A stretch of 64,000 bases of DNA from Nitrososphaerota archaeon (GCA_033581555.1 JAVQSZ010000003.1:10654-74653), one strand, 5' to 3'. Numbered from the stretch's first letter, positions 4,482 to 36,614 are shown. Notes: a model not told the origin generated them from the sequence alone. A program made the numbers and translations.

Positions 4482-4573
4482 GGGGCCGTGGTCTAGCGGT
4501 CATGACGCCGCCCTTACGTGACCGACGTCAGGGGACACGGCGGAGGTCGCCGGTTCGAGTCCGGCCGGCCCCA
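4482..4573 (+). tRNA. tRNA-Val with a 19-nt intron in the anticodon loop
   Basis: Acceptor GGGGCCG/CGGCCCC-A, anticodon stem CCGCC/GGCGG around a 26-nt loop, T-arm GCCGG-TTCGAGT-CCGGC; A/T-rich box about 25 nt upstream. Confidence 0.93.
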
Positions 4574-11134: not shown

Positions 11135-13339
11135 TCAGGAGATGTACGCCATCTGGGTCTTCATCCGCTCCTCGATCCTCTCGTAGGCGGTCCTCAGCTC
11201 CTCGCTGATGCTGGGCTTGACCTTCTCGAAGGCCCTCTCGAAGTGCCTCCAGGAGACCTTCAGCTTCTCGAGCTCCTCCTTCCTCTGCTTCGACGCAGCG
11301 ATCAGCGACGAGTGCTCCCTCGCGGCGTTTAGGGCCGCCTCCCTGCAGAGCGCCTCGATGTCGGCACCGGTGTAGCCCTCCGTGAGCCTCGCGAGCCTCT
11401 CGAGGCTGACGTCGTCGTCGAGCGGCATCCCCCTCGTGTGGACGTTGAGGATCTCGAGCCTCGCCTTGTAGTCAGGTATCGGGACCCTGATCACCCTGTC
11501 GAACCTCCCGGGCCTGAGGAGGGCTGGGTCCAGCAGGTCGGGCCTGTTCGTCGCGCCTATCACTACAACCCCAGTGAGTGCCTGAATTCCGTCCATCTCG
11601 GTCAGCATTTGGTTCACGATCCTGTCCGTGACGCCCGCGTCGGTGTGCGTCCCCCTCCTGGCCGCGATCGAGTCGAGCTCGTCGAAGAAGACGATGCACG
11701 GCGCGGTCTCCCTCGCCTTCCTGAAGATCTCCCTGATCGCCTTCTCCGACTCTCCGACCCACTTGGAGAGGACCTCGGGGCCCTTGACGCTGATGAAGTT
11801 CGCCTCAGACTCGGTCGCGACCGCCTTCGCGAGCAAGGTCTTTCCAGTCCCGGGCGGACCGTAGAGCAGGATCCCCTTCGTCGGCCTGATCCCGAGCCTC
11901 TTGAAGAGCTCCGGGTACCTGAGCGGCCACTCGACGGCCTCCCTCAGCTCCTGTTTGACCTCGTCGAGGTCGCCGACCATGTCCCAGGTCACGTTCGGGA
12001 TCTCGAGGACAACCTCCCTAAGGGCAGAGGGCTGAACGACCTTCAGGGCCTGCATGAAGTCATCCCTGGTCACCTTCAGTTGCTCGAGGACCTCCGCAGG
12101 TATCACCTCCCTCTCGAGGTCGATCTTCGGCAGGAACCTCCTCAGCGCGTTCATCGCCGCCTCCCTACAGAGCGCGGCTATGTCGGCGCCCGTGAAGCCG
12201 TGGGTGACGTCGGCCAGCTCGTCGATATTGACGTCCTCGGCGAGCGGCATCCTCCTGGTGTGTATCTGGAAGATCTCCTTCCTCCCGTTCCTATCCGGGA
12301 CGCCTATCCTGATCTCCCTGTCGAACCTCCCGGGCCTTCGGAGCGCCGGGTCGACCGCGTCGATCCTGTTCGTCGCGCCGATCACTACCACCTGTCCCCT
12401 AGACTTCAGGCCGTCCATGAGCGTGAGGAGCTGCGAGACCACCCTCCTCTCCACCTCGCCAGTCACCTCGCTCCGCTTCGGGGCGATCGCGTCCAACTCG
12501 TCGATGAAGATGATGCTGGGGGCGCTCTTCTCGGCCTCGGCGAAGATCTCCCTGAGCCTGGCCTCGCTCTCTCCGTAGAACTTGCTCATGATCTCGGGGC
12601 CGTTGATGCTGAAGAACCTAGCCCCGGTCTCGTTCGCGAGGGCCTTCGCTATCAGGGTCTTCCCGGTCCCCGGAGGTCCGTAGAGGATGACGCCCTTGGG
12701 AGGTTCGATCCCGAGGTGCCTGAAGAGCTCAGGGTGTTTCAGGGGCAGCTCGACCATCTCCCTGATCCGCTGAAGCTCGTTCGCGAGGCCTCCGATGTCC
12801 TCGTACGTGACCCCTCCGACCTCCTCGGTCCTCGCGACCGGAGAGGTCGAGACCTCGATAACAGTGTCCTCCGTCACGAAGACGTAGCTCTTCGGGACCG
12901 TGTGGATGACCTTCAGCTCGAGCCCCATCCCCAGTATCGGGATCACGACCGTGTCACCCTTCGCGACCGGGAGGTTCATCAACTGCTGCTTGACGACCCT
13001 CGAGATGTCGCCGATGAAGGGGAGCTGCTCGTAGGGCGCGAGGACCACTTTCGTACCCCTGACGGTCTCGGCCTTGGCGACGGTAACGTAGTCCCCGACG
13101 TTCACGCCCGCGTTCCTCCTGATCTCGCTGTCGATCCTGATCAGCCTCTGGCCTTCGTCCTCCCTGTAGGCTGGCCACGCCCTCGCGACCGTCGACTTCT
13201 TTCCGGTCACCTCGACGAGCTCGCCCGGGGAGACGTTCAGCTCCCTCAGGACCGAGTTGTCGATCCTCGCGATCCTCATGCCGATGTCCCTCTGGCGCGC
13301 CTCTGCGACGCGCAGCTGGACGCCCCGCTTGTGGGACAT
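11135..13339 (-). CDS. cdc48: Cdc48/VAT AAA+ ATPase
   Basis: N-domain plus two AAA modules (GPPGTGKT twice, DELD, RPGRFDR). Confidence 0.97.
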
Positions 13340-16885: not shown

Positions 16886-17326
16886 ATGGCCGACGAGTGC
16901 GTCTTCTGCAGGATCGCCTCAGGCGAGGAGTGGGGCGCGATCGTCTGGGACGACGGCGAGTACGTCGCCTTCATGGACAAGTACCCGGTCTCGGTGGGCC
17001 ACACGCTCGTGGCGCCGAAGTTCCACAGGTCCGACGTCCTCGAGATGTCCTTCGAAGAGGCCGGGAGACTCTTCTCGCTCGCGGCGAAGGTCGCGAGGGC
17101 GATCAAGGCCTCCCTGAACCCCGACGGCATCAACATCCTTCAGAACAACGGCGCCGCCGCAGGGCAGGTGATCTTCCACGCCCACGTCCACGTCATCCCG
17201 AGGTACGCCGGACACCATGGGAACCCGTCCAGGCCACTGAAGGGGATGAGGCTCAGCGTCACAGAGGAGGAGCTCCTGAGGGTCGCTGAGAGGATCGGTG
17301 AGGCCATGCGAAGGCTTCAGGGTTGA
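16886..17326 (+). CDS. HIT family nucleotide hydrolase
   Basis: CVFCRI, GHTLV, QNNGAAAGQVIFHAHVHVIPR. Confidence 0.95.
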   Translation: MADECVFCRIASGEEWGAIVWDDGEYVAFMDKYPVSVGHTLVAPKFHRSDVLEMSFEEAGRLFSLAAKVARAIKASLNPDGINILQNNGAAAGQVIFHAHVHVIPRYAGHHGNPSRPLKGMRLSVTEEELLRVAERIGEAMRRLQG

Positions 17327-17676
17327 GCCCTGGGCCTGCTCTCCAGCCCGCTGTACCTCCTCACCGCGTCGACGAAGCTCTCCGGATCGGTCACCGATAG
17401 CACGAGCCTCCTCCAGAAGCCCGCATTCTTCCTCACCTCGACGCAGTTTCGCCTGCGAGCGACGACGTAGAGCGTCCTGCTGATCGGGTAGGGCTCAATC
17501 CCCCTTCCGACGTACCACGGGATCCTCTCGACGACGCCTACCCACTCCAGCTCCGGGTATGGAATCTCGATCGTGAAGAGGAGGGTCTTCACCTCCATCC
17601 GGTCCCAGCGAACGCGTGCCCATACCTTGAACGGGAAGAGGTCGATGTAGTCGGAGTGGAGGGCCTCCTCGGTCAC
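17317..17676 (-). CDS. Hypothetical protein, possible bacterial-PH-like domain
   Basis: Beta-rich 119 aa ending LSVTDPESFVDAV; overlaps the stop of the upstream gene (GTGA). Confidence 0.6.
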   Translation of the reverse strand: MTEEALHSDYIDLFPFKVWARVRWDRMEVKTLLFTIEIPYPELEWVGVVERIPWYVGRGIEPYPISRTLYVVARRRNCVEVRKNAGFWRRLVLSVTDPESFVDAVRRYSGLESRPRAQP

Positions 17677-17993
17677 CGGCGCCGCCTCAAGAGCGTGGCC
17701 GCGGCCCCGAGCGCCGCGACGAAGACCAGCGCGAGCCCCAGCACGACTATTGGGTTGAGGAGGGTGGAGGCGGCGATCCCAAGTCCTGCAGCTAGGGCGA
17801 CCCCTCCCCAGAGGAGGTAGTAGAGGGGGTCCCTGGACGCGGCCCCGTAGGCGACGGTGTAGACCCCGAAGACCGCCACGACGACCCCGACGGCGGTGAA
17901 GGGGTCGACCCTCAGCAGGCCCGCCCCCGATAGAACTAGCAAAGCCCCCGTCGATGCCACGATCGCTATCAGGGCTCCGGCGCCGTAACTCAT
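17673..17993 (-). CDS. Small 4-TM membrane protein
   Basis: Four hydrophobic segments, basic RRRR tail; ATGA overlap with the SPFH gene. Confidence 0.75.
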   Translation of the reverse strand: MSYGAGALIAIVASTGALLVLSGAGLLRVDPFTAVGVVVAVFGVYTVAYGAASRDPLYYLLWGGVALAAGLGIAASTLLNPIVVLGLALVFVAALGAAATLLRRRR

Positions 17994-19048
17994 GTCACCC
18001 TCGCACCGCACTCGGGGCAGAACTTGGACCCCGGCGCTACCCTGTGTCCGCTCGGACAGGTCAGGGCCATCGGAGCTCCGCACTCCGGACAGAACTTCGA
18101 TCCAACCGGGACGCTGTGACCGTTGGGGCAGGTCGTCGTCTGAGGTTGCACCGGCGCCTGTTGCTGTGGAGGCGGCCCAAGGGGCTTGCCGCAGCTCCCG
18201 CAGAACCTCACGCCCTGAGGGTTCTGGAACCCGCAGTGCGGACAGACCACCAGCACAGTTTGGGGCTGCTGGGCCGGATGCTGGAAGAGGGGCGGGATGA
18301 TCGCGATGCCCGCGCCGACAGCTGCTCCCGGGCTCTGTCCGAGGGCCTCCGCGGTCTTCGTCACGGTCTGCATCCTGAGGACCTCAGCGGCCGAGACTCC
18401 CTGCCTGAGGAAGAAGATCCTGTCCCTCCACTCCGGCGTCGTGTCAATCCCCTCGAACTTGACGTCGATCAGCTCGAGCCCTATCCTCCTGAAGGCCGCG
18501 CCCACGACGTTCTTAGCGAGGAAGCTGGTCTCGTCGAGCTTGCCGTAGACCTCGGTTATGCTGTGCTGGCTCAGCTCGTCGATTAGGGCCTCGTTGAAGT
18601 ATCCCCTGAGGAAGTCCTGGAGCTGCTGGGTGCTGTAGGCTCCCTGCGACCCCACGACCTCCTGGACGAAGAGGTTCGGTTCCTCGACCCTGAACCAGAA
18701 GCCCCCGAAGAACTTCAGGGGTGCGAGCTCCTTCGTCTGGCCCTGCGCCCCGAACTTCCCCTGGAACTGCTTCAGCGAGACGAAGATCACGGTCGCCCTG
18801 AACGGGACCCTGTCGAAGCCCGCGACCCTCGAGAGGACCTTCGTCAGGAGCGGCAGGTTCGCGGTGGTGATCACGTGCCTCCCGGCCCTGAAGACGTCGT
18901 AGGCCTTCCCGTCCCTGAGGAAGACCGCGGCCTGCGCCTCCTCGACGATAAGGTTGCTCCCCCACTCGATCTCGTCCACCGGGTACCTCCAGACGATGTC
19001 GCCCTCCCTCGCGCCGACCCACTGGATCACCTTAGGCAACCTTCCCAC
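17990..19048 (-). CDS. SPFH/band-7 domain protein with C-terminal zinc ribbons (YdjI-like)
   Basis: IVWRYP...GSNLIVEEAQAAVFLRDG...GRH...TANLP; C-terminal CPHCG..FCGSCG, CPNGH..FCPECG, CPSGH..FCPECG. Confidence 0.9.
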   Translation of the reverse strand: MGRLPKVIQWVGAREGDIVWRYPVDEIEWGSNLIVEEAQAAVFLRDGKAYDVFRAGRHVITTANLPLLTKVLSRVAGFDRVPFRATVIFVSLKQFQGKFGAQGQTKELAPLKFFGGFWFRVEEPNLFVQEVVGSQGAYSTQQLQDFLRGYFNEALIDELSQHSITEVYGKLDETSFLAKNVVGAAFRRIGLELIDVKFEGIDTTPEWRDRIFFLRQGVSAAEVLRMQTVTKTAEALGQSPGAAVGAGIAIIPPLFQHPAQQPQTVLVVCPHCGFQNPQGVRFCGSCGKPLGPPPQQQAPVQPQTTTCPNGHSVPVGSKFCPECGAPMALTCPSGHRVAPGSKFCPECGARVT

Positions 19049-20279
19049 CTCCCTTGCTCCTTCTGGGAATCCAGGGCCTCTGCCCAGCTATAACGTTGCC
19101 AGTCGAGCCCGAGACGACCACCATGAACTCCCTGCCCGACATCTCGTACTTCACGAACCACCAGGGGTCGTAGACCAGCTCAGGCTCGCCTGCCTCGAAA
19201 GCGCTGACGTCGAACTTCCTCAGCGTCGTGTACCTGGACCTGATAGTCTCTAAGGCCGTGCCTTTGGCAAAATTGACGGCCTCGGCCTCGTCCATCTCCG
19301 CGTTCAGGACTTCGTCGCCGGTCCTCCTGAAGGGCAGCTTCCTCTCAAGGGGGACCCTGAAGGCCTCCGGGTCTGGCTGGTAGGCCGCAGACCTCCTCGC
19401 CACGACCGGGACTTGCATGAGCTCATCGACCGTCTCCTTCCTTTCCCTATCCGCGATCGTCCGCCCGGCCTTCCCGCCGAGTGCCGCTCCGAGCAGCTCG
19501 AGCCCGATCTCTTGGGCCACCTTAGCGACCTCGCTCTTCGTCTTGACGAGGCCCCTTTCGCCGATCACCTCACCCCGAACCCTAACCGGGACCACCCATA
19601 TCGGGACGTACGCAGACCAGATCTCTCCCCAGCTCGCCCTCTCGACCATTCCCTTGGTGACAAGTATCCCCTTCGCGGCGAAGTCCTGCGCGATCCTCAT
19701 CGCGGCGCTCCCGTCGACGGACATCGGGACCATCGACATCCTCGGAGGCTTCTCGCCGGTCGGGTTGTTCGCGTAACCGCAGTACCCGCATATGACGAGG
19801 ACCTCCTCTGGGTCGTAGGTGAGTGGCGCTCCGCAGTGTAGGCACGCCTCTAGACGGGGGCGCTGTGTCGGTCGGGCTTGTCGAACCGGCAGTTGAGGCT
19901 GGGAGGACTGGGTCGGCACCGTCGTCTGAGGCGTTCCGAACAGCTTCCCCAGGGGGGTCGAGCTGAGCATCTCCAGCGCCTCTCGGGCCTCAAGCTGCCT
20001 CCAACCCACGATCGCCGACGGGTTAGCGCAAGACTCCATGAGCGCCTGGTCCACCAGGTCCTTCAGCTCTTCAGGCCCCTCGACATCCACCCTCAGCTCC
20101 TCCGGCGACCCGCCAGCCCTTATCGTCCCCTTCTTCATGAAGCCCCTGCTCACCTCGACGAGGAGGCTCCTCTGCCCCGGCAAGTGCTTGTTGACCTTCC
20201 ATCCCGACCTCTGGAGGATCTCGATCAGATTTCGCTGAAAGGCGGTCATGTCTACCCCGGCGTTCCTGTACGTCGGCAT
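19032..20279 (-). CDS. Zinc-ribbon protein (YdjG-like), soluble, with extra N-terminal domain
   Basis: CLHCGAP..CGYCG; YVPIW and YDPWW...VVSGSTG repeats. Confidence 0.75.
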   Translation of the reverse strand: MPTYRNAGVDMTAFQRNLIEILQRSGWKVNKHLPGQRSLLVEVSRGFMKKGTIRAGGSPEELRVDVEGPEELKDLVDQALMESCANPSAIVGWRQLEAREALEMLSSTPLGKLFGTPQTTVPTQSSQPQLPVRQARPTQRPRLEACLHCGAPLTYDPEEVLVICGYCGYANNPTGEKPPRMSMVPMSVDGSAAMRIAQDFAAKGILVTKGMVERASWGEIWSAYVPIWVVPVRVRGEVIGERGLVKTKSEVAKVAQEIGLELLGAALGGKAGRTIADRERKETVDELMQVPVVARRSAAYQPDPEAFRVPLERKLPFRRTGDEVLNAEMDEAEAVNFAKGTALETIRSRYTTLRKFDVSAFEAGEPELVYDPWWFVKYEMSGREFMVVVSGSTGNVIAGQRPWIPRRSKGGGKVA

Positions 20280-20282
20280 CAG

Positions 20283-20816
20283 CTAACCCACCTCCGCCAG
20301 GCCCTTCAGGATCTTCGTCCTCTCGTCGATCAGCTTGTCGAACTCGGAGACCGCCGCCCTCACCTCTGAGAGCTTGGCCTTCCACTCGTCCGTCCCGGGT
20401 TCCCTGCCCATCAGCTCGGCGACCGAGGACCTGATCGACTCAGCCCTCTCGATCAGCGAGAGGTCGTGCCTGATCACCGCGTCCAGCTTGTCCTCCTTCA
20501 CCTTCACCGCGTCGAAGAGGCCCGCGTAGCCTGCGACCGCTTTGTCGATCCTCTGCGTCACCCTGTCCAGCTCGGCCCTGAGGTTCTCGAAGAGGAACTT
20601 GGAGTCCTGGTCGTACGCGAGCTTCCTGGCTGCAGAGGGCGAGAGCGGGGAGCTGAGGGACGCCCTGGCCTCCGAGAGCAGCGAGCTGACCTTCCTCCTC
20701 ACCAGGACGTCGGTCTCCCTCCTGACCTCCTTCTCCTTGTACCCCCTGTAACCGGGGACGTAGGAGATGATCCTCTCGAGGAGGCCCATCTCCCTCCTGA
20801 CGCGCTCGACGTCCAT
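20283..20816 (-). CDS. Conserved alpha-helical/coiled-coil hypothetical protein
   Basis: LERIISYVPGYRGYKEKEVRRETD, GYAGLFD; heptad-rich. Confidence 0.75.
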   Translation of the reverse strand: MDVERVRREMGLLERIISYVPGYRGYKEKEVRRETDVLVRRKVSSLLSEARASLSSPLSPSAARKLAYDQDSKFLFENLRAELDRVTQRIDKAVAGYAGLFDAVKVKEDKLDAVIRHDLSLIERAESIRSSVAELMGREPGTDEWKAKLSEVRAAVSEFDKLIDERTKILKGLAEVG

Positions 20817-20888
20817 TCGAGCCCTGTCATCAACCTACCGATATAAGGCCTACACCGACGAGCAGGCCGAACCTCTAAAAGGACCGAG

Positions 20889-21899
20889 TCACGTCATATC
20901 CCTCCTGTAGATCCTCTCGATCAAGCCCGGTTTCCTCCGCCCCTCCGTGACCGGCTCGTGGGCCTTCGCTGGTGCTAGGGCGGCCCTGGCGTAGTAGGCG
21001 GAGGCCGTCGCCATACCGGCAAGCGCGGTGACGGCCGTCAACCAGCTCGAACCCCAGATGACCGCAGCGAGCGTTATCCCCGCGACCAAGTGCAGCGCGG
21101 ATATGCCGAGGTAAGCTGCCCTCTCGGCGACCTCGGAGGGATACGTCGCGAGGATCACCCTCGACGACGATGCATCGATCATGGCCCTGTACTTCTTGCC
21201 CCGGAACTCATAGGTGACGTCCCAGACGGGGACGTAAACCAGCGAGAGCTCCCCGACCGAGATCTCGTCGGACCTGGACCTAACCTCGACGACCTCCCTC
21301 GAGATGAGCCTCGTCAGCTCCGCGGCGGCCGCCCTCTCTGCGGCCCTCCTCGCCTCTTCCCTGCTCACTGTGGCGCCGTGAAGGACGCCTCCGTGCCTCC
21401 TGACGTACTCGTGGCTGAAGTAGAGCCTCGCCCTCGAGACCGCGACCATCTCCCCCTCCACTGGAACCTCTCCGCTCGCGGGGACCGCGAACTCGATCAG
21501 CCTCTCGAAGCTCCCGGACTCCTCCCTCCGGATCAACTTGACGGTCCTGAAGCCCTTGCCGTCCGGATTCGAGTACTCCGCGTCCTCCCCGAGCCCGGTG
21601 AAGGCAGTCGAGGCACGGACGGTCGCGACCCAGAACGGATAGAAGTGGAGGCTCACTTCCCTGAGGACCATCTCCCTCGGGAGCGACTCGTCGTAGAGGT
21701 GCTGCTTCTCGGCCCAAAGCAGGAAGTTCTCTAAGGCCTTGCTGCTGTCGTAATGGACAGGTAGGACGTACCTCTTCTCCTCCTCGAAGGTCCTGAAGGT
21801 CACGCCGCAGTAGCCGCACCTGATCGCGACGTCTCCCTCCCTCACCTCGTGGGACGCGCCGCAGTTCGGGCACCGGTAAGTCCCAGCGACGCCGCTCAT
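20889..21899 (-). CDS. Zinc-ribbon protein (YdjG-like) with C-terminal TM pair
   Basis: CPNCGA..CGYCG; FYPFW and YVPVW...IDASS; two hydrophobic helices. Confidence 0.78.
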   Translation of the reverse strand: MSGVAGTYRCPNCGASHEVREGDVAIRCGYCGVTFRTFEEEKRYVLPVHYDSSKALENFLLWAEKQHLYDESLPREMVLREVSLHFYPFWVATVRASTAFTGLGEDAEYSNPDGKGFRTVKLIRREESGSFERLIEFAVPASGEVPVEGEMVAVSRARLYFSHEYVRRHGGVLHGATVSREEARRAAERAAAAELTRLISREVVEVRSRSDEISVGELSLVYVPVWDVTYEFRGKKYRAMIDASSSRVILATYPSEVAERAAYLGISALHLVAGITLAAVIWGSSWLTAVTALAGMATASAYYARAALAPAKAHEPVTEGRRKPGLIERIYRRDMT

Positions 21900-22897
21900 C
21901 CCTCGAGCACCCTCACGTCCTCCTCCTTCGAGAGCCTCTTCAACCTCTGGATTGCGGTCGCGGACCTCGCGGAGAGGTAACCCCAGAGCGCCGCTAGACC
22001 GGGCGGTAGGGCTAGGAGGATCAGCTTGGCTTCTAGGCTGACGTCCTCGTAGAGGAGGGGCTCGATGACTGGTCCCAGCGCAGCGGTGGCGAGCACCGCA
22101 CCTGCTCCTACGAGCATCCACTTCGCCCTCCTCAGCAGGCTTACCGGAGCCTCCGCCTTCAGCACCTTCACCCCACCCTCCGCGCCGTCGACGCAGAGCC
22201 TGTAGGACTTCCCTCGGGACTCGTACCGGGCCTCGACCACTGGGTAGAGGACGAGCCTGATCGAGGAGCGGTCCGTCTCGGTGTAGCAGTCGAAGACCTT
22301 CGTCGCCATCGACTCAACCCTCGACCTGTGCGCGTCGGCGGCCCCTACCTCGGCGGATTTCCAGGCCTCCTCTTCGGTGAGCTCGGATCCCAAGACCTCC
22401 CAGCCCCTCAGCGCTCCTGGGTCGAGCCCTCCAGCGGCTTCGTAGCGCGTCAGCGCGCTCCACTTCACCGCCCCGAGCCCGAATATCGACTCGAACTTCC
22501 TCCCGTAAACCGCGACCGCGAGCCTCTCGTCGAGCGTGCCCGTCACGGGATAGTAGACCTTATAGACCGTCGTTCTGCGTCCAGTGGATCTGGTCTTGTG
22601 CTCGACCTTGTACCCGTTGTAACGGGTTCTCGCCCTCAGCTCCGCCACCCAGACCGGGACTGCGACGAACCTGACGTCCCGTATCGAGGCCCCCTTTCCT
22701 CCCTCCTTACGGACCGCGCGCTCCACGAAGTCCCTCAGCTCCTGAGCGCGGGCCGGACGGACCATAAGGGGGCTGGCCCCCAAGGGGAAGGAGGACTCGA
22801 CGTGGCCGCAGTAAGAGCAGACGGAGACGACCGTGTCGGGAGAGAGCTCGATGGGGGCCCCGCAGTTCTGGCACCTGTGAGCGGCCTCCGTCAGCAT
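21896..22897 (-). CDS. Zinc-ribbon protein (YdjG-like) with C-terminal TM pair
   Basis: CQNCGAP..CSYCG; AVPVW and LYPVV...VDG; two hydrophobic helices. Confidence 0.78.
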   Translation of the reverse strand: MLTEAAHRCQNCGAPIELSPDTVVSVCSYCGHVESSFPLGASPLMVRPARAQELRDFVERAVRKEGGKGASIRDVRFVAVPVWVAELRARTRYNGYKVEHKTRSTGRRTTVYKVYYPVTGTLDERLAVAVYGRKFESIFGLGAVKWSALTRYEAAGGLDPGALRGWEVLGSELTEEEAWKSAEVGAADAHRSRVESMATKVFDCYTETDRSSIRLVLYPVVEARYESRGKSYRLCVDGAEGGVKVLKAEAPVSLLRRAKWMLVGAGAVLATAALGPVIEPLLYEDVSLEAKLILLALPPGLAALWGYLSARSATAIQRLKRLSKEEDVRVLEG

Positions 22898-35753: not shown

Positions 35754-36614
35754 ATGGCGGTATTAGGTAGGGTCGTCTGCCCGCACTGCGGAAAGCTCAC
35801 GATCAAGGGGAAGTTCTGCATGAATTGCGGAAAGGAGCTCGAGGCGCCGGCAACCCAGCCTCCCGTTCAGCCCAGGCCGACGCCCCCGCAGCCCGGCGCC
35901 CCTACGCCTCCTACGATTGAGCTGGCAGCGCCTCCTGCTGAGCAGCAGGCCCCGCCCGAGGCCCCGAAGGAGGTCCAACCCGAGGAGCTCACGGAGGAGA
36001 GGAGGCTCGTCGAGCAGCTCTCGAAGCTCTACAACTGGCAGCTCAGGCTGGTCGACCTCTTCCTCGACGGCGAGGCCACGTTCGACGCGTTCTCCGAGAT
36101 CTACACTGACTACGAGTCCCGGATAGCGACGCTCAACCAGAAGAGGCTCGAGATGATCAGCAGGTACGAGGAGAGGATCAAGGAGCTGACCCAGAGGCTC
36201 GACAACCTGAAGCTCCGGCATGAGGTCAGCGAGATCACCGACAGGGAGTACATCAGGCAGAAGATCGAGATCGACCGTGAGATCTCGAAGCTGAGGCCGA
36301 AGCTGACGATCCTTCAGAACCCGATCGAGATCAAGATCGGCGACATACCGAGGTTCAGGTCCGATATACAGGAGAGGATGGAGAGGGTGAAGAGGCAGGC
36401 GAAGGACCTGAACATGCCCGAGGAGTGGGTCCAGAGGGTCGTGAACAACCTCAGGGTCCTGTTGGACGCGATAGGCGAGCTGGTCAAGCAGTACGAGAGG
36501 ATAAAGGCGGAGATGGTGAAGTTGGAGCTCAGGTACAAGGTTGGGGAGCTGAAGCACGACGACTACATGTCCCAGAGGCAGAGGTTAGAGAGGCAGCTGG
36601 AGCTCACCTTCTGA
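35754..36614 (+). CDS. Double-zinc-ribbon, Pro-rich linker and CdvA-like coiled-coil protein
   Basis: CPHCG..FCMNCG; PPVQPRPTPPQPGAPTPP; repeated LRHEVSEI..Y and LRYKVGEL..Y helices. Confidence 0.7.
   Translation: MAVLGRVVCPHCGKLTIKGKFCMNCGKELEAPATQPPVQPRPTPPQPGAPTPPTIELAAPPAEQQAPPEAPKEVQPEELTEERRLVEQLSKLYNWQLRLVDLFLDGEATFDAFSEIYTDYESRIATLNQKRLEMISRYEERIKELTQRLDNLKLRHEVSEITDREYIRQKIEIDREISKLRPKLTILQNPIEIKIGDIPRFRSDIQERMERVKRQAKDLNMPEEWVQRVVNNLRVLLDAIGELVKQYERIKAEMVKLELRYKVGELKHDDYMSQRQRLERQLELTF

Follow-up and report, generated by a model that had tools for sequence, protein, structure and literature searches.

SPFH proteins are universal and their function is poorly understood; members of the family are expected to form an oligomeric scaffold beneath the membrane. 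Work on the branch of the family that lacks a transmembrane (TM) segment, Band_7_1, is to our knowledge confined to a single organism. Here a locus built around such a protein is described from a 64,000-nucleotide stretch of DNA of a Nitrososphaerota archaeon (GCA_033581555.1, JAVQSZ010000003.1:10654-74653), the whole of which was analysed and is called the window below. ORF calling placed seven open reading frames (ORFs) on the minus strand at 17317–22897, numbered g1 to g7 in order of transcription. The conserved unit of the locus is a core of three genes – g5, encoding the SPFH protein, g3, encoding a helical-bundle protein, and g6, encoding a small membrane protein – while g1, g2 and g4 encode accessory Zn-ribbon paralogs that vary in number from locus to locus. 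The product of the locus is probably an SPFH scaffold complex with a housekeeping role at the membrane of Thermoproteota-type archaea; statements about families and homology are much firmer here than those about mechanism.

The closest described system is the pspA-ydjGHI (pspA-samGHI) operon of Bacillus subtilis, which belongs to the envelope-stress response. YdjI is described as an SPFH protein with no TM segment and a C-terminal Zn ribbon (PMC11237479, PMC13713150), and YdjG as a protein in which two Zn ribbons are combined with a YpeB-related domain and a TM segment (PMC11237479), with PF08271 as its reported Pfam domain (PMC9239133). According to PMC8581546, YdjI needs YdjG and YdjH for its membrane localisation, and PspA foci need YdjI. 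The window locus has in common with this system a TM-less band-7 SPFH protein ending in Zn ribbon, and an adjoining partner that combines a Zn ribbon, an alpha/beta region and a C-terminal TM segment and is probably of the YdjG family, to judge from a gene set of Enterococcus discussed below. It differs in having neither a PspA nor a TPM (YdjH) gene, in encoding three paralogous adaptors instead of one, with one ribbon per adaptor instead of two, and in the three ribbons of its SPFH protein. Its universal partners, g3 and g6, were matched in none of the 11 bacterial loci examined. A first-pass annotation of the window had proposed a kinship with YdjG and YdjI. This is correct in kind, g5 being of the TM-less, ribbon-bearing Band_7_1 type and the paralogs being members of a family that occupies the YdjG position in Bacilli; the conserved system itself is a different and simpler core. 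The same annotation had noted the lack of PspA and TPM, and the wider search agreed: PspA (PspA_IM30), TPM, Snf7/ESCRT-III, Vps4 and CdvA were all absent from the seven proteins, from the 63 ORFs scanned in the window, and from the representatives of 50 recurrent neighbour clusters.

Better-known SPFH systems are more distant. Stomatin/NfeD, HflK/C and flotillin share the SPFH domain with g5 and have an N-terminal membrane anchor of their own, which g5 lacks, and no NfeD or protease partner was found near g5 among the seven proteins and the window ORFs. Basket-like structures lining an archaeal membrane from within have been ascribed to SPFH proteins (10.1101/2025.11.06.686947). Open-access papers and bioRxiv yielded no account of the g3-g5-g6 triad or of archaeal YdjG-like paralogs.

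A conserved three-gene core

Twelve g5 homologs were aligned and used for a genome scan, which matched 271 stretches, 147 of which encode relatives. The best 80 loci, with flanks of up to 10 kb to either side, were retained. All of these loci are archaeal and belong to Caldarchaeales, Bathyarchaeia, Nezhaarchaeota and their relatives, and their SPFH proteins show 64–96% identity. Partner genes close to the SPFH gene and in the same orientation were counted by profile searches of six-frame translations, both in all 80 loci and in a well-flanked subset of 59 that have at least 3.5 kb upstream and at least 0.6 kb downstream.

The g3 gene (20283–20816, minus strand, 177 amino acids (aa), labelled CC and assigned from neighbourhood and model) has a counterpart beside the SPFH gene in 77 of the 80 loci and in all 59 of the well-flanked ones; the three loci without it all end within 1.4 kb upstream. 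The g6 gene (17673–17993, minus strand, 106 aa, labelled TM4 and assigned from neighbourhood and alignment) is almost as constant, with counterparts in 73 of the 80 loci and 56 of the 59. It lies 3' of the SPFH gene in Caldarchaeales and 5' of g3 in Bathyarchaeia, which indicates that its association with the SPFH gene survives rearrangement. The g1/g2/g4 family was found in 46 of the 80 loci (ca. 58%) and in 35 of the 59, where 24 loci have no copy, 10 have one, 23 have two and 2 have three. A separate BLAST clustering agreed with these counts – g3 in 76 of 81 loci (the window included), g6 in 66, and 71 paralog proteins in 47.

The first-pass annotation had treated the seven genes as one system in which several adaptors recruit a soluble SPFH cage to the membrane. 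The complete set occurs only in the window and in its 96%-identical relative, L001; what recurs is the core with a variable complement of paralogs, and the genes that nearly always accompany the SPFH gene are g3 and g6. Co-location in other genomes was seen for g3 and g6, in part for the paralogs, and for g7 in L001 only.

Comparison of the window with L001 indicates that g1 through g6 are under strong purifying selection. Differences at first, second and third codon positions number 35/22/76 in g1, 33/27/66 in g2, 11/10/29 in g3, 52/50/127 in g4, 6/6/60 in g5 and 11/4/26 in g6. The corresponding differences in g7 (17317–17676, minus strand, 119 codons), an ORF of uncertain status that starts inside a GTGA overlap, are flat at 12/11/15, and its only homolog among the 80 loci is the one in L001. 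Both the flat codon positions and the single-locus occurrence cast doubt on g7 as a functional gene. It matched no Pfam or NCBIfam family, and the PH-like assignment first given to it was not confirmed. The domain calls for the other genes are ribbon and TM helices in g1 and g2, all-helical structure in g3, a soluble paralog in g4, SPFH with three ribbons in g5, and four TM helices in g6.

The remaining neighbours of the core differ by lineage and are housekeeping genes, among them those for class I LysRS, a FAD oxidoreductase, an AAA_33 kinase, thymidylate kinase, an SMC-like ATPase and methylmalonyl-CoA mutase. A cluster of 232-aa proteins (c14), encoded 5' of g6 in 13 Bathyarchaeia loci, was considered as a divergent paralog and rejected (hhalign E = 0.3, no Pfam match). 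In 14 loci (including L013, L019, L028, L033-L035, L044, L047, L074 and L079) the SPFH gene adjoins an oppositely oriented gene for a protein of ca. 200 aa with Arrestin_N (E = 9e-10) and a Zn ribbon at its C-terminus, as at L073:1872-2471 (minus strand); the window has no homolog of it. A gene of the RAMP superfamily (CRISPR-type) lies near the cluster in four loci (L006-L008 and L035), in three of them, all from Caldarchaeum, directly 3', downstream of the g6 homolog (e.g. L007:6451-7386). It is lineage-specific and absent from the window.

The SPFH protein

The g5 gene (17990–19039, minus strand) encodes a soluble protein of 349 aa, assigned from Pfam and alignment, that matches Band_7_1 (PF13421) with E = 2.2e-28 and Band_7 (PF01145) with E = 2.8e-17. 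Its C-terminus holds three Zn ribbons, matched by Zn_Ribbon_1 in three stretches. No TM segment was predicted, hence neither an N-terminal TM helix nor a hairpin. Homologs in Candidatus Caldarchaeum, Bathyarchaeia, Nezhaarchaeota and related metagenome-assembled genomes are 65–82% identical, and the alignment of 12 of them has a mean column identity of 78%, with a Gly/Ala-rich hydrophobic linker between the SPFH part and the ribbons that is invariant throughout. The Zn ribbons of the locus are short and generic, and their matches in solved structures are all ribbon-only.

In ribbons 2 and 3, in the C-terminal part of g5 (17990–18230), the first knuckle is C-x3-H in the window and its Caldarchaeales relatives and C-x2-C in Bathyarchaeia. 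Some Caldarchaeum homologs are only 315–322 aa long and cover 92% of the query, and one ribbon may be missing from these.

Compact archaeal proteins made of major vault protein (MVP) repeat, SPFH domain and a variable C-terminus are described as present in all archaeal groups including TACK, at lengths of 317–396 aa (10.64898/2026.04.01.715805), and Asgard homologs of MVP are treated in PMC12962969. By description, g5 is similar to the compact proteins in size, in its SPFH core and in its lineage-variable C-terminus, here of Zn ribbons, and it has no TM segment. It could therefore be one of them, a soluble vault-like cage with the neighbouring proteins as cargo or assembly factors. This is very unlikely, given that g5 has no match to Pfam Vault or MVP_shoulder even at E ≤ 1, that its SPFH part has no sequence match in the PDB, and that its core includes a protein with four TM helices and is often joined by TM-anchored paralogs.

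The core partners g3 and g6

The model of g3, built from a 71-sequence alignment, is a bundle of four long helices (predicted local distance difference test (pLDDT) 82.9) with no TM segment. Foldseek gave no match in the PDB at E ≤ 1e-3, the list being headed by designed bundles, the talin rod and IncA. The NCBIfam model NF047596 (LIMLP_15305 family) matched all 71 of the g3 family members, below its cut-off, with a best E of 3.3e-16; the family has no Pfam model, and in open-access papers and bioRxiv the name LIMLP_15305 appears solely in one RNA-seq table. A tblastn search of a plasmid collection with g3 gave no match. Atlas neighbours, which are leads only, place g3-like clusters in Methanobacteriota and Chloroflexota.

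The Methanobacteriota cluster (score 0.94) bears, as a lead, on the possibility that the locus is a recruitment platform for ESCRT-III/Cdv machinery encoded elsewhere, acting in membrane remodelling or division-linked scission. Published observations point the same way. SPFH proteins with coiled coil and Zn ribbon have been noted computationally in methanogen ESCRT loci, with YdjI cited, and in the 'Meth_adaptin' loci such a protein lies beside one that, to judge from the description, resembles g4 in architecture, with an uncharacterised N-terminal domain, a Zn ribbon and a further, appendage-like region (PMC11188069); the dependence of PspA on YdjI (PMC8581546) also fits. The Meth_adaptin loci, however, hold genes for Vps4, ESCRT-III, GOLD and ProX (PMC11188069), none of which occurs here, and the missing ESCRT-III, Vps4, CdvA and PspA genes of the window and of the recurrent neighbours count against a platform of this kind. 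Searched as a whole chain, the model of g1 also found nothing in the PDB at E ≤ 1e-3, and an adaptin appendage (Ig and TBP domains) was not among the matches listed. On balance the ESCRT/Cdv explanation appears rather unlikely.

Four hydrophobic helices were recognised in g6 by alignment and TM prediction, and it is the sole membrane protein of the conserved core. NfeD_membrane matched 4 of 47 g6 homologs, with E of at least 0.085. The conserved residues Y3, Y45, Y58, W62 and G63 are predicted from the positive-inside rule to cluster at the cytoplasmic face of the membrane.

The Zn-ribbon paralogs

The three accessory proteins of the window are encoded on the minus strand by g1 (21896–22897, 333 aa, YdjG-like adaptor paralog A, assigned from its ORF, TM segments, model and tree), g2 (20889–21902, 337 aa, YdjG-like adaptor paralog B, from its ORF, BLASTP and junction) and g4 (19032–20279, 415 aa, between g3 and g5, from its ORF, BLASTP and tree). 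As had been supposed at the outset, they are related to each other: mutual BLASTP gave E values of 7e-9, 8e-14 and 4e-12, with 25–27% identity over ca. 270 residues. Each has a single Zn ribbon followed by a core of ca. 220 aa. In g1 and g2 the ribbon is N-terminal and TM helices are found at the C-terminus, the Zn-ribbon Pfam matches of g1 being sub-threshold. The longer g4 has no TM segment and carries an additional N-terminal domain of ca. 140 aa ahead of ribbon and core, which is kept in 16 loci.

An AlphaFold model of g1 (41-sequence alignment, pLDDT 87.5, predicted TM-score (pTM) 0.79) consists of the ribbon, two units of a helix and a long beta-hairpin, and two TM helices (residues 254–281 and 288–315). 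A fold search of the PDB with the whole chain, ribbon and TM helices included, returned nothing at E ≤ 1e-3 and no adaptin chain among the matches listed. Sequence matches of the paralogs in the PDB were confined to the ribbon, and of the candidate folds for the core, NTF2/PepSY and TBP-like, neither was picked out. The family has no Pfam model of its own. A Pfam search of 41 members found Zn-ribbon models, the one exception being PepSY, the sole non-ribbon family among the 25 listed, which was found sub-threshold in 8 of the 41 (best E = 0.01). These PepSY matches agree with the YpeB-related domain published for YdjG (PMC11237479).

The family is large: among 1.84 billion representatives, its profile matched 8043 clusters at E ≤ 1e-3, 3481 at E ≤ 1e-10 and 184 at E ≤ 1e-30. 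Chloroflexota and Bacillota have paralog-like clusters among the Atlas neighbours, again only as leads. Trees of the paralog core were quick maximum-likelihood trees of 75 rows with SH-aLRT (Shimodaira–Hasegawa-like approximate likelihood ratio test) support only, the groups of the second run having been set from the first tree. With 98–100% support they separated the g1-type, the g2-type, the g4-type, a soluble 250-aa type of Bathyarchaeia, and the bacterial proteins. g4 falls with the Bathyarchaeia g4-type clade and g1 in a clade of its own. The separate, well-supported groups suggest that g1, g2 and g4 are old lineages and not recent copies.

Two further observations concern g1. After its second TM helix it ends in an acidic tail (21896–21930), E-x-D-[ILV]-x-V-[LM], which is conserved in g1-type orthologs and was modelled as short strands; the tail could be a docking peptide. 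A search of BFVD with the g1 model gave two viral matches at E ≤ 1e-3, from Yasminevirus (8.1e-6) and Edafosvirus (5.2e-5, TM-score 0.41), both being proteins of giant viruses that bear the name 'DnaJ-like subfamily C member 3'. A YdjG-like fold may thus be present in Klosneuvirinae or their eukaryotic hosts.

Bacterial relatives and the link to YdjG

A tblastn search with g5 matched 156 plasmid and chromid records, eight of which were examined. In three of these eight, a gene of the paralog family lies directly 3' of the Band_7_1 gene: Vibrio coralliilyticus (E = 1.3e-28), Paracoccus versutus (E = 1.1e-35) and Pseudorhodobacter turbinis (E = 8e-31). The other five showed either weak matches to the paralog profile (E from 1e-5 to 1e-3), presumably through the Zn ribbon, or none; the weak matches include a DUF4178 protein of Ralstonia, a ribbon-TPR protein of Bacteroides and the ORF that follows the Band_7_1 gene in Burkholderia.

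A second tblastn search, with the Paracoccus paralog protein, matched 12 records, and in all three of those further examined a Band_7_1 gene lies directly 5' of the paralog gene. In Comamonas, a Band_7_1 protein with HTH_17 is followed by a 'TFIIB-type zinc ribbon-containing protein' (paralog profile E = 6.4e-31), and in Tsukamurella, a Band_7_1 protein with GYF_2 is followed by a paralog homolog (E = 1.7e-19). In Enterococcus gallinarum the order is a Band_7_1 protein with a double Zn ribbon (DZR), a paralog homolog (E = 4.2e-25) with two ribbons, PF08271 and one C-terminal TM segment, and a TPM_phosphatase protein. This combination of SPFH, YdjG-like and TPM genes is the YdjI/YdjG/YdjH gene set of Bacilli (PMC8581546, PMC9239133, PMC11237479).

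The archaeal and bacterial paralogs can be aligned collinearly, with all four ribbon cysteines invariant and two motifs common to both sets, one resembling Y-V-P-x-W and a C-terminal one ending in N/D-G-x-T-G-x-V. A Clostridia protein of 361 aa (P0378), with two ribbons and one TM segment, matched the paralog profile with E = 2.3e-33 and clusters in the tree with the protein of Enterococcus; its relatives in Lachnospiraceae and Eubacteriales are annotated with PF08271 alone. The g1/g2/g4 family is the same family as the bacterial proteins that follow Band_7_1 SPFH genes and that take the position of YdjG in the gene set of Bacilli, and the Band_7_1 branch with a YdjG-like partner is common to Archaea and several bacterial phyla.

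The pair in Vibrio, Paracoccus, Pseudorhodobacter, Comamonas and Tsukamurella has a constant form, with the SPFH gene first and then a gene for a protein of Zn ribbon, core and TM segment (profile E from 1.7e-19 to 1.1e-35). In Proteobacteria and Actinomycetota the SPFH protein of the pair ends in GYF_2 or HTH_17, whereas archaeal g5 ends in Zn ribbons, and the loci of the pair have no match to g3 or g6.

The exchange of C-terminal modules among bacterial Band_7_1 proteins – HTH_17, GYF_2 or a double Zn ribbon – would suit a signalling or regulatory device, in which the SPFH protein restrains a membrane sensor, as has been suggested for SamI and SamH, and the ribbons bind nucleic acid or regulators. 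SamI has been proposed to regulate the activity of SamGH (PMC13713150). The recurrent neighbours of the archaeal core, however, include neither a TPM sensor nor a conserved kinase or transcription factor, and the ribbons are of the short and generic kind noted above for g5, so that the chance of this explanation being right is slim.

One of the five loci of the first search has a different setting. In Ralstonia (L088 5522-9129) the Band_7_1 gene has a DUF350 gene on one side and a DUF4178/Zn-ribbon gene on the other, next to speD and an aminopropyltransferase gene. A polyamine-linked Band_7_1 context of this type was described earlier (PMC11237479) and is distinct from the YdjG-like neighbourhood.

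A putative membrane scaffold

By analogy with other SPFH proteins, g5 would oligomerise into a ring or basket beneath the membrane. As g5 has no anchor of its own, g6, which is nearly always present, would hold it there together with the TM-bearing g1 and g2 where these occur. Soluble g4 and the Zn ribbons may act as protein-protein connectors, and g3 could be an obligate regulatory or structural partner in the place that PspA has in Bacillus. The complex would most likely serve to organise, survey or repair the cytoplasmic membrane and would not act in defence. That the adaptors recruit the SPFH cage is suggested by analogy with the published work on B. subtilis.

Several observations weigh against this picture of a membrane scaffold. 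The proposed ring rests on knowledge of the SPFH family. The suggested tie to B. subtilis YdjG is at the level of the family and runs through the gene order in Enterococcus and the Clostridia relatives. Since 24 of the 59 well-flanked loci have no paralog nearby, the adaptors are not essential in cis. The search for PspA or ESCRT-III kinship of g3 found none in 18 matches of its profile to the PDB, and CdvB2 reached a probability of only 0.14 in Foldseek. No Pfam family was found for g6, and DUF350 (YjfL-like, as beside the Ralstonia Band_7_1 gene) was rejected as its relative with an hhalign probability of 0.1.

A role in antiviral defence or another conflict system acting on membranes had been among the options of the first-pass annotation. 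The SPFH/paralog pair of Vibrio coralliilyticus lies near a TIR-domain gene, and the g1 fold was found in the two giant-virus proteins. PADLOC gave no credible match: five of the seven proteins had none, and those of g2 were limited to the range of the ribbon (E = 0.012 and 0.053). The window context is ribosomal and metabolic, and the SPFH protein, with its high identity across classes and its syntenic core, is unlike patchily distributed defence genes. The defence explanation was dropped as highly improbable; a constitutive role of the scaffold in membrane organisation or integrity is favoured by its very high conservation and its housekeeping surroundings.

A more far-reaching version of the scaffold reading is that g3, g5 and g6 form a previously unrecognised, ESCRT-III-free machine for membrane maintenance in Bathyarchaeia, Caldarchaeales and Nezhaarchaeota. 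In it g3, without Pfam model or fold match, would have the role of PspA, a soluble helical effector held by the SPFH basket and released onto damaged membrane, and the YdjG-like paralogs would be interchangeable tethers. This version is speculative and, as it stands, unlikely. If it were true, and if Band_7_1 proteins were the 'compact MVP' proteins, vault-type and flotillin-type cages would both be tied to one ancestral membrane module of bacteria and archaea.

Whatever its mechanism, g5 is among the most conserved non-housekeeping proteins of uncultured Thermoproteota (64–96% across classes) and is locked to two unstudied partners. The core defines a minimal set of three proteins usable for biochemical reconstitution, and gives comparative access to the question of how soluble SPFH cages are linked to membranes without PspA.

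Locus layout and genomic context

The first-pass description of seven co-oriented ORFs, most of them joined by overlaps, was accurate. The junction of g1 and g2 is an ATGA overlap, with an ATG start for g2 at 21902. The longest ORF of g2 reaches 22121; its start was put at 21902 on account of the ATGA junction and of ortholog lengths of 332–341 aa. The 72-nt gap between g2 and g3 is the sole sizeable intergenic space in the cluster. It contains a TTATAT box (20841–20846, minus strand) ca. 25 nt 5' of the g3 start, a feature noted from sequence only, which is possibly an internal archaeal promoter for g3 through g6. A 3-nt spacer separates g3 and g4, and g4 and g5 overlap by 8 nt. The start codon of g5 is a TTG at 19039, which gives the protein the same length as an identical database protein (P0001). 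An ATGA overlap joins g5 to g6, which starts at 17993, and a GTGA overlap joins g6 to g7.

The gene for ribosomal protein L5 ends 46 nt before the start of the cluster, on the same strand, and closes the run S17-L14-L24-S4e-L5 (22944–25402). Archaeal ribosomal operons usually go on after L5 with S14, S8 and L6, none of which is among the 63 window ORFs scanned. At its 3' end the cluster faces a HIT-family gene tail-to-tail. G+C content is uniform across the window (0.60–0.67), the only RNA gene detected is a tRNA gene at 4482–4573, and the genes around the cluster are of a housekeeping kind throughout.

Two genes outside the cluster encode proteins that may be of interest. A CDC48/VAT-type double AAA ATPase is encoded at 11135–13339 (minus strand), ca. 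4 kb downstream of the cluster, and is not a conserved neighbour in other loci. At 35754–36614 (plus strand) a protein of 286 aa combines an N-terminal Zn ribbon with a long coiled coil that gave a sub-threshold CdvA-like match (E = 0.0019); this protein also matched the SPFH alignment weakly, presumably via its ribbon.

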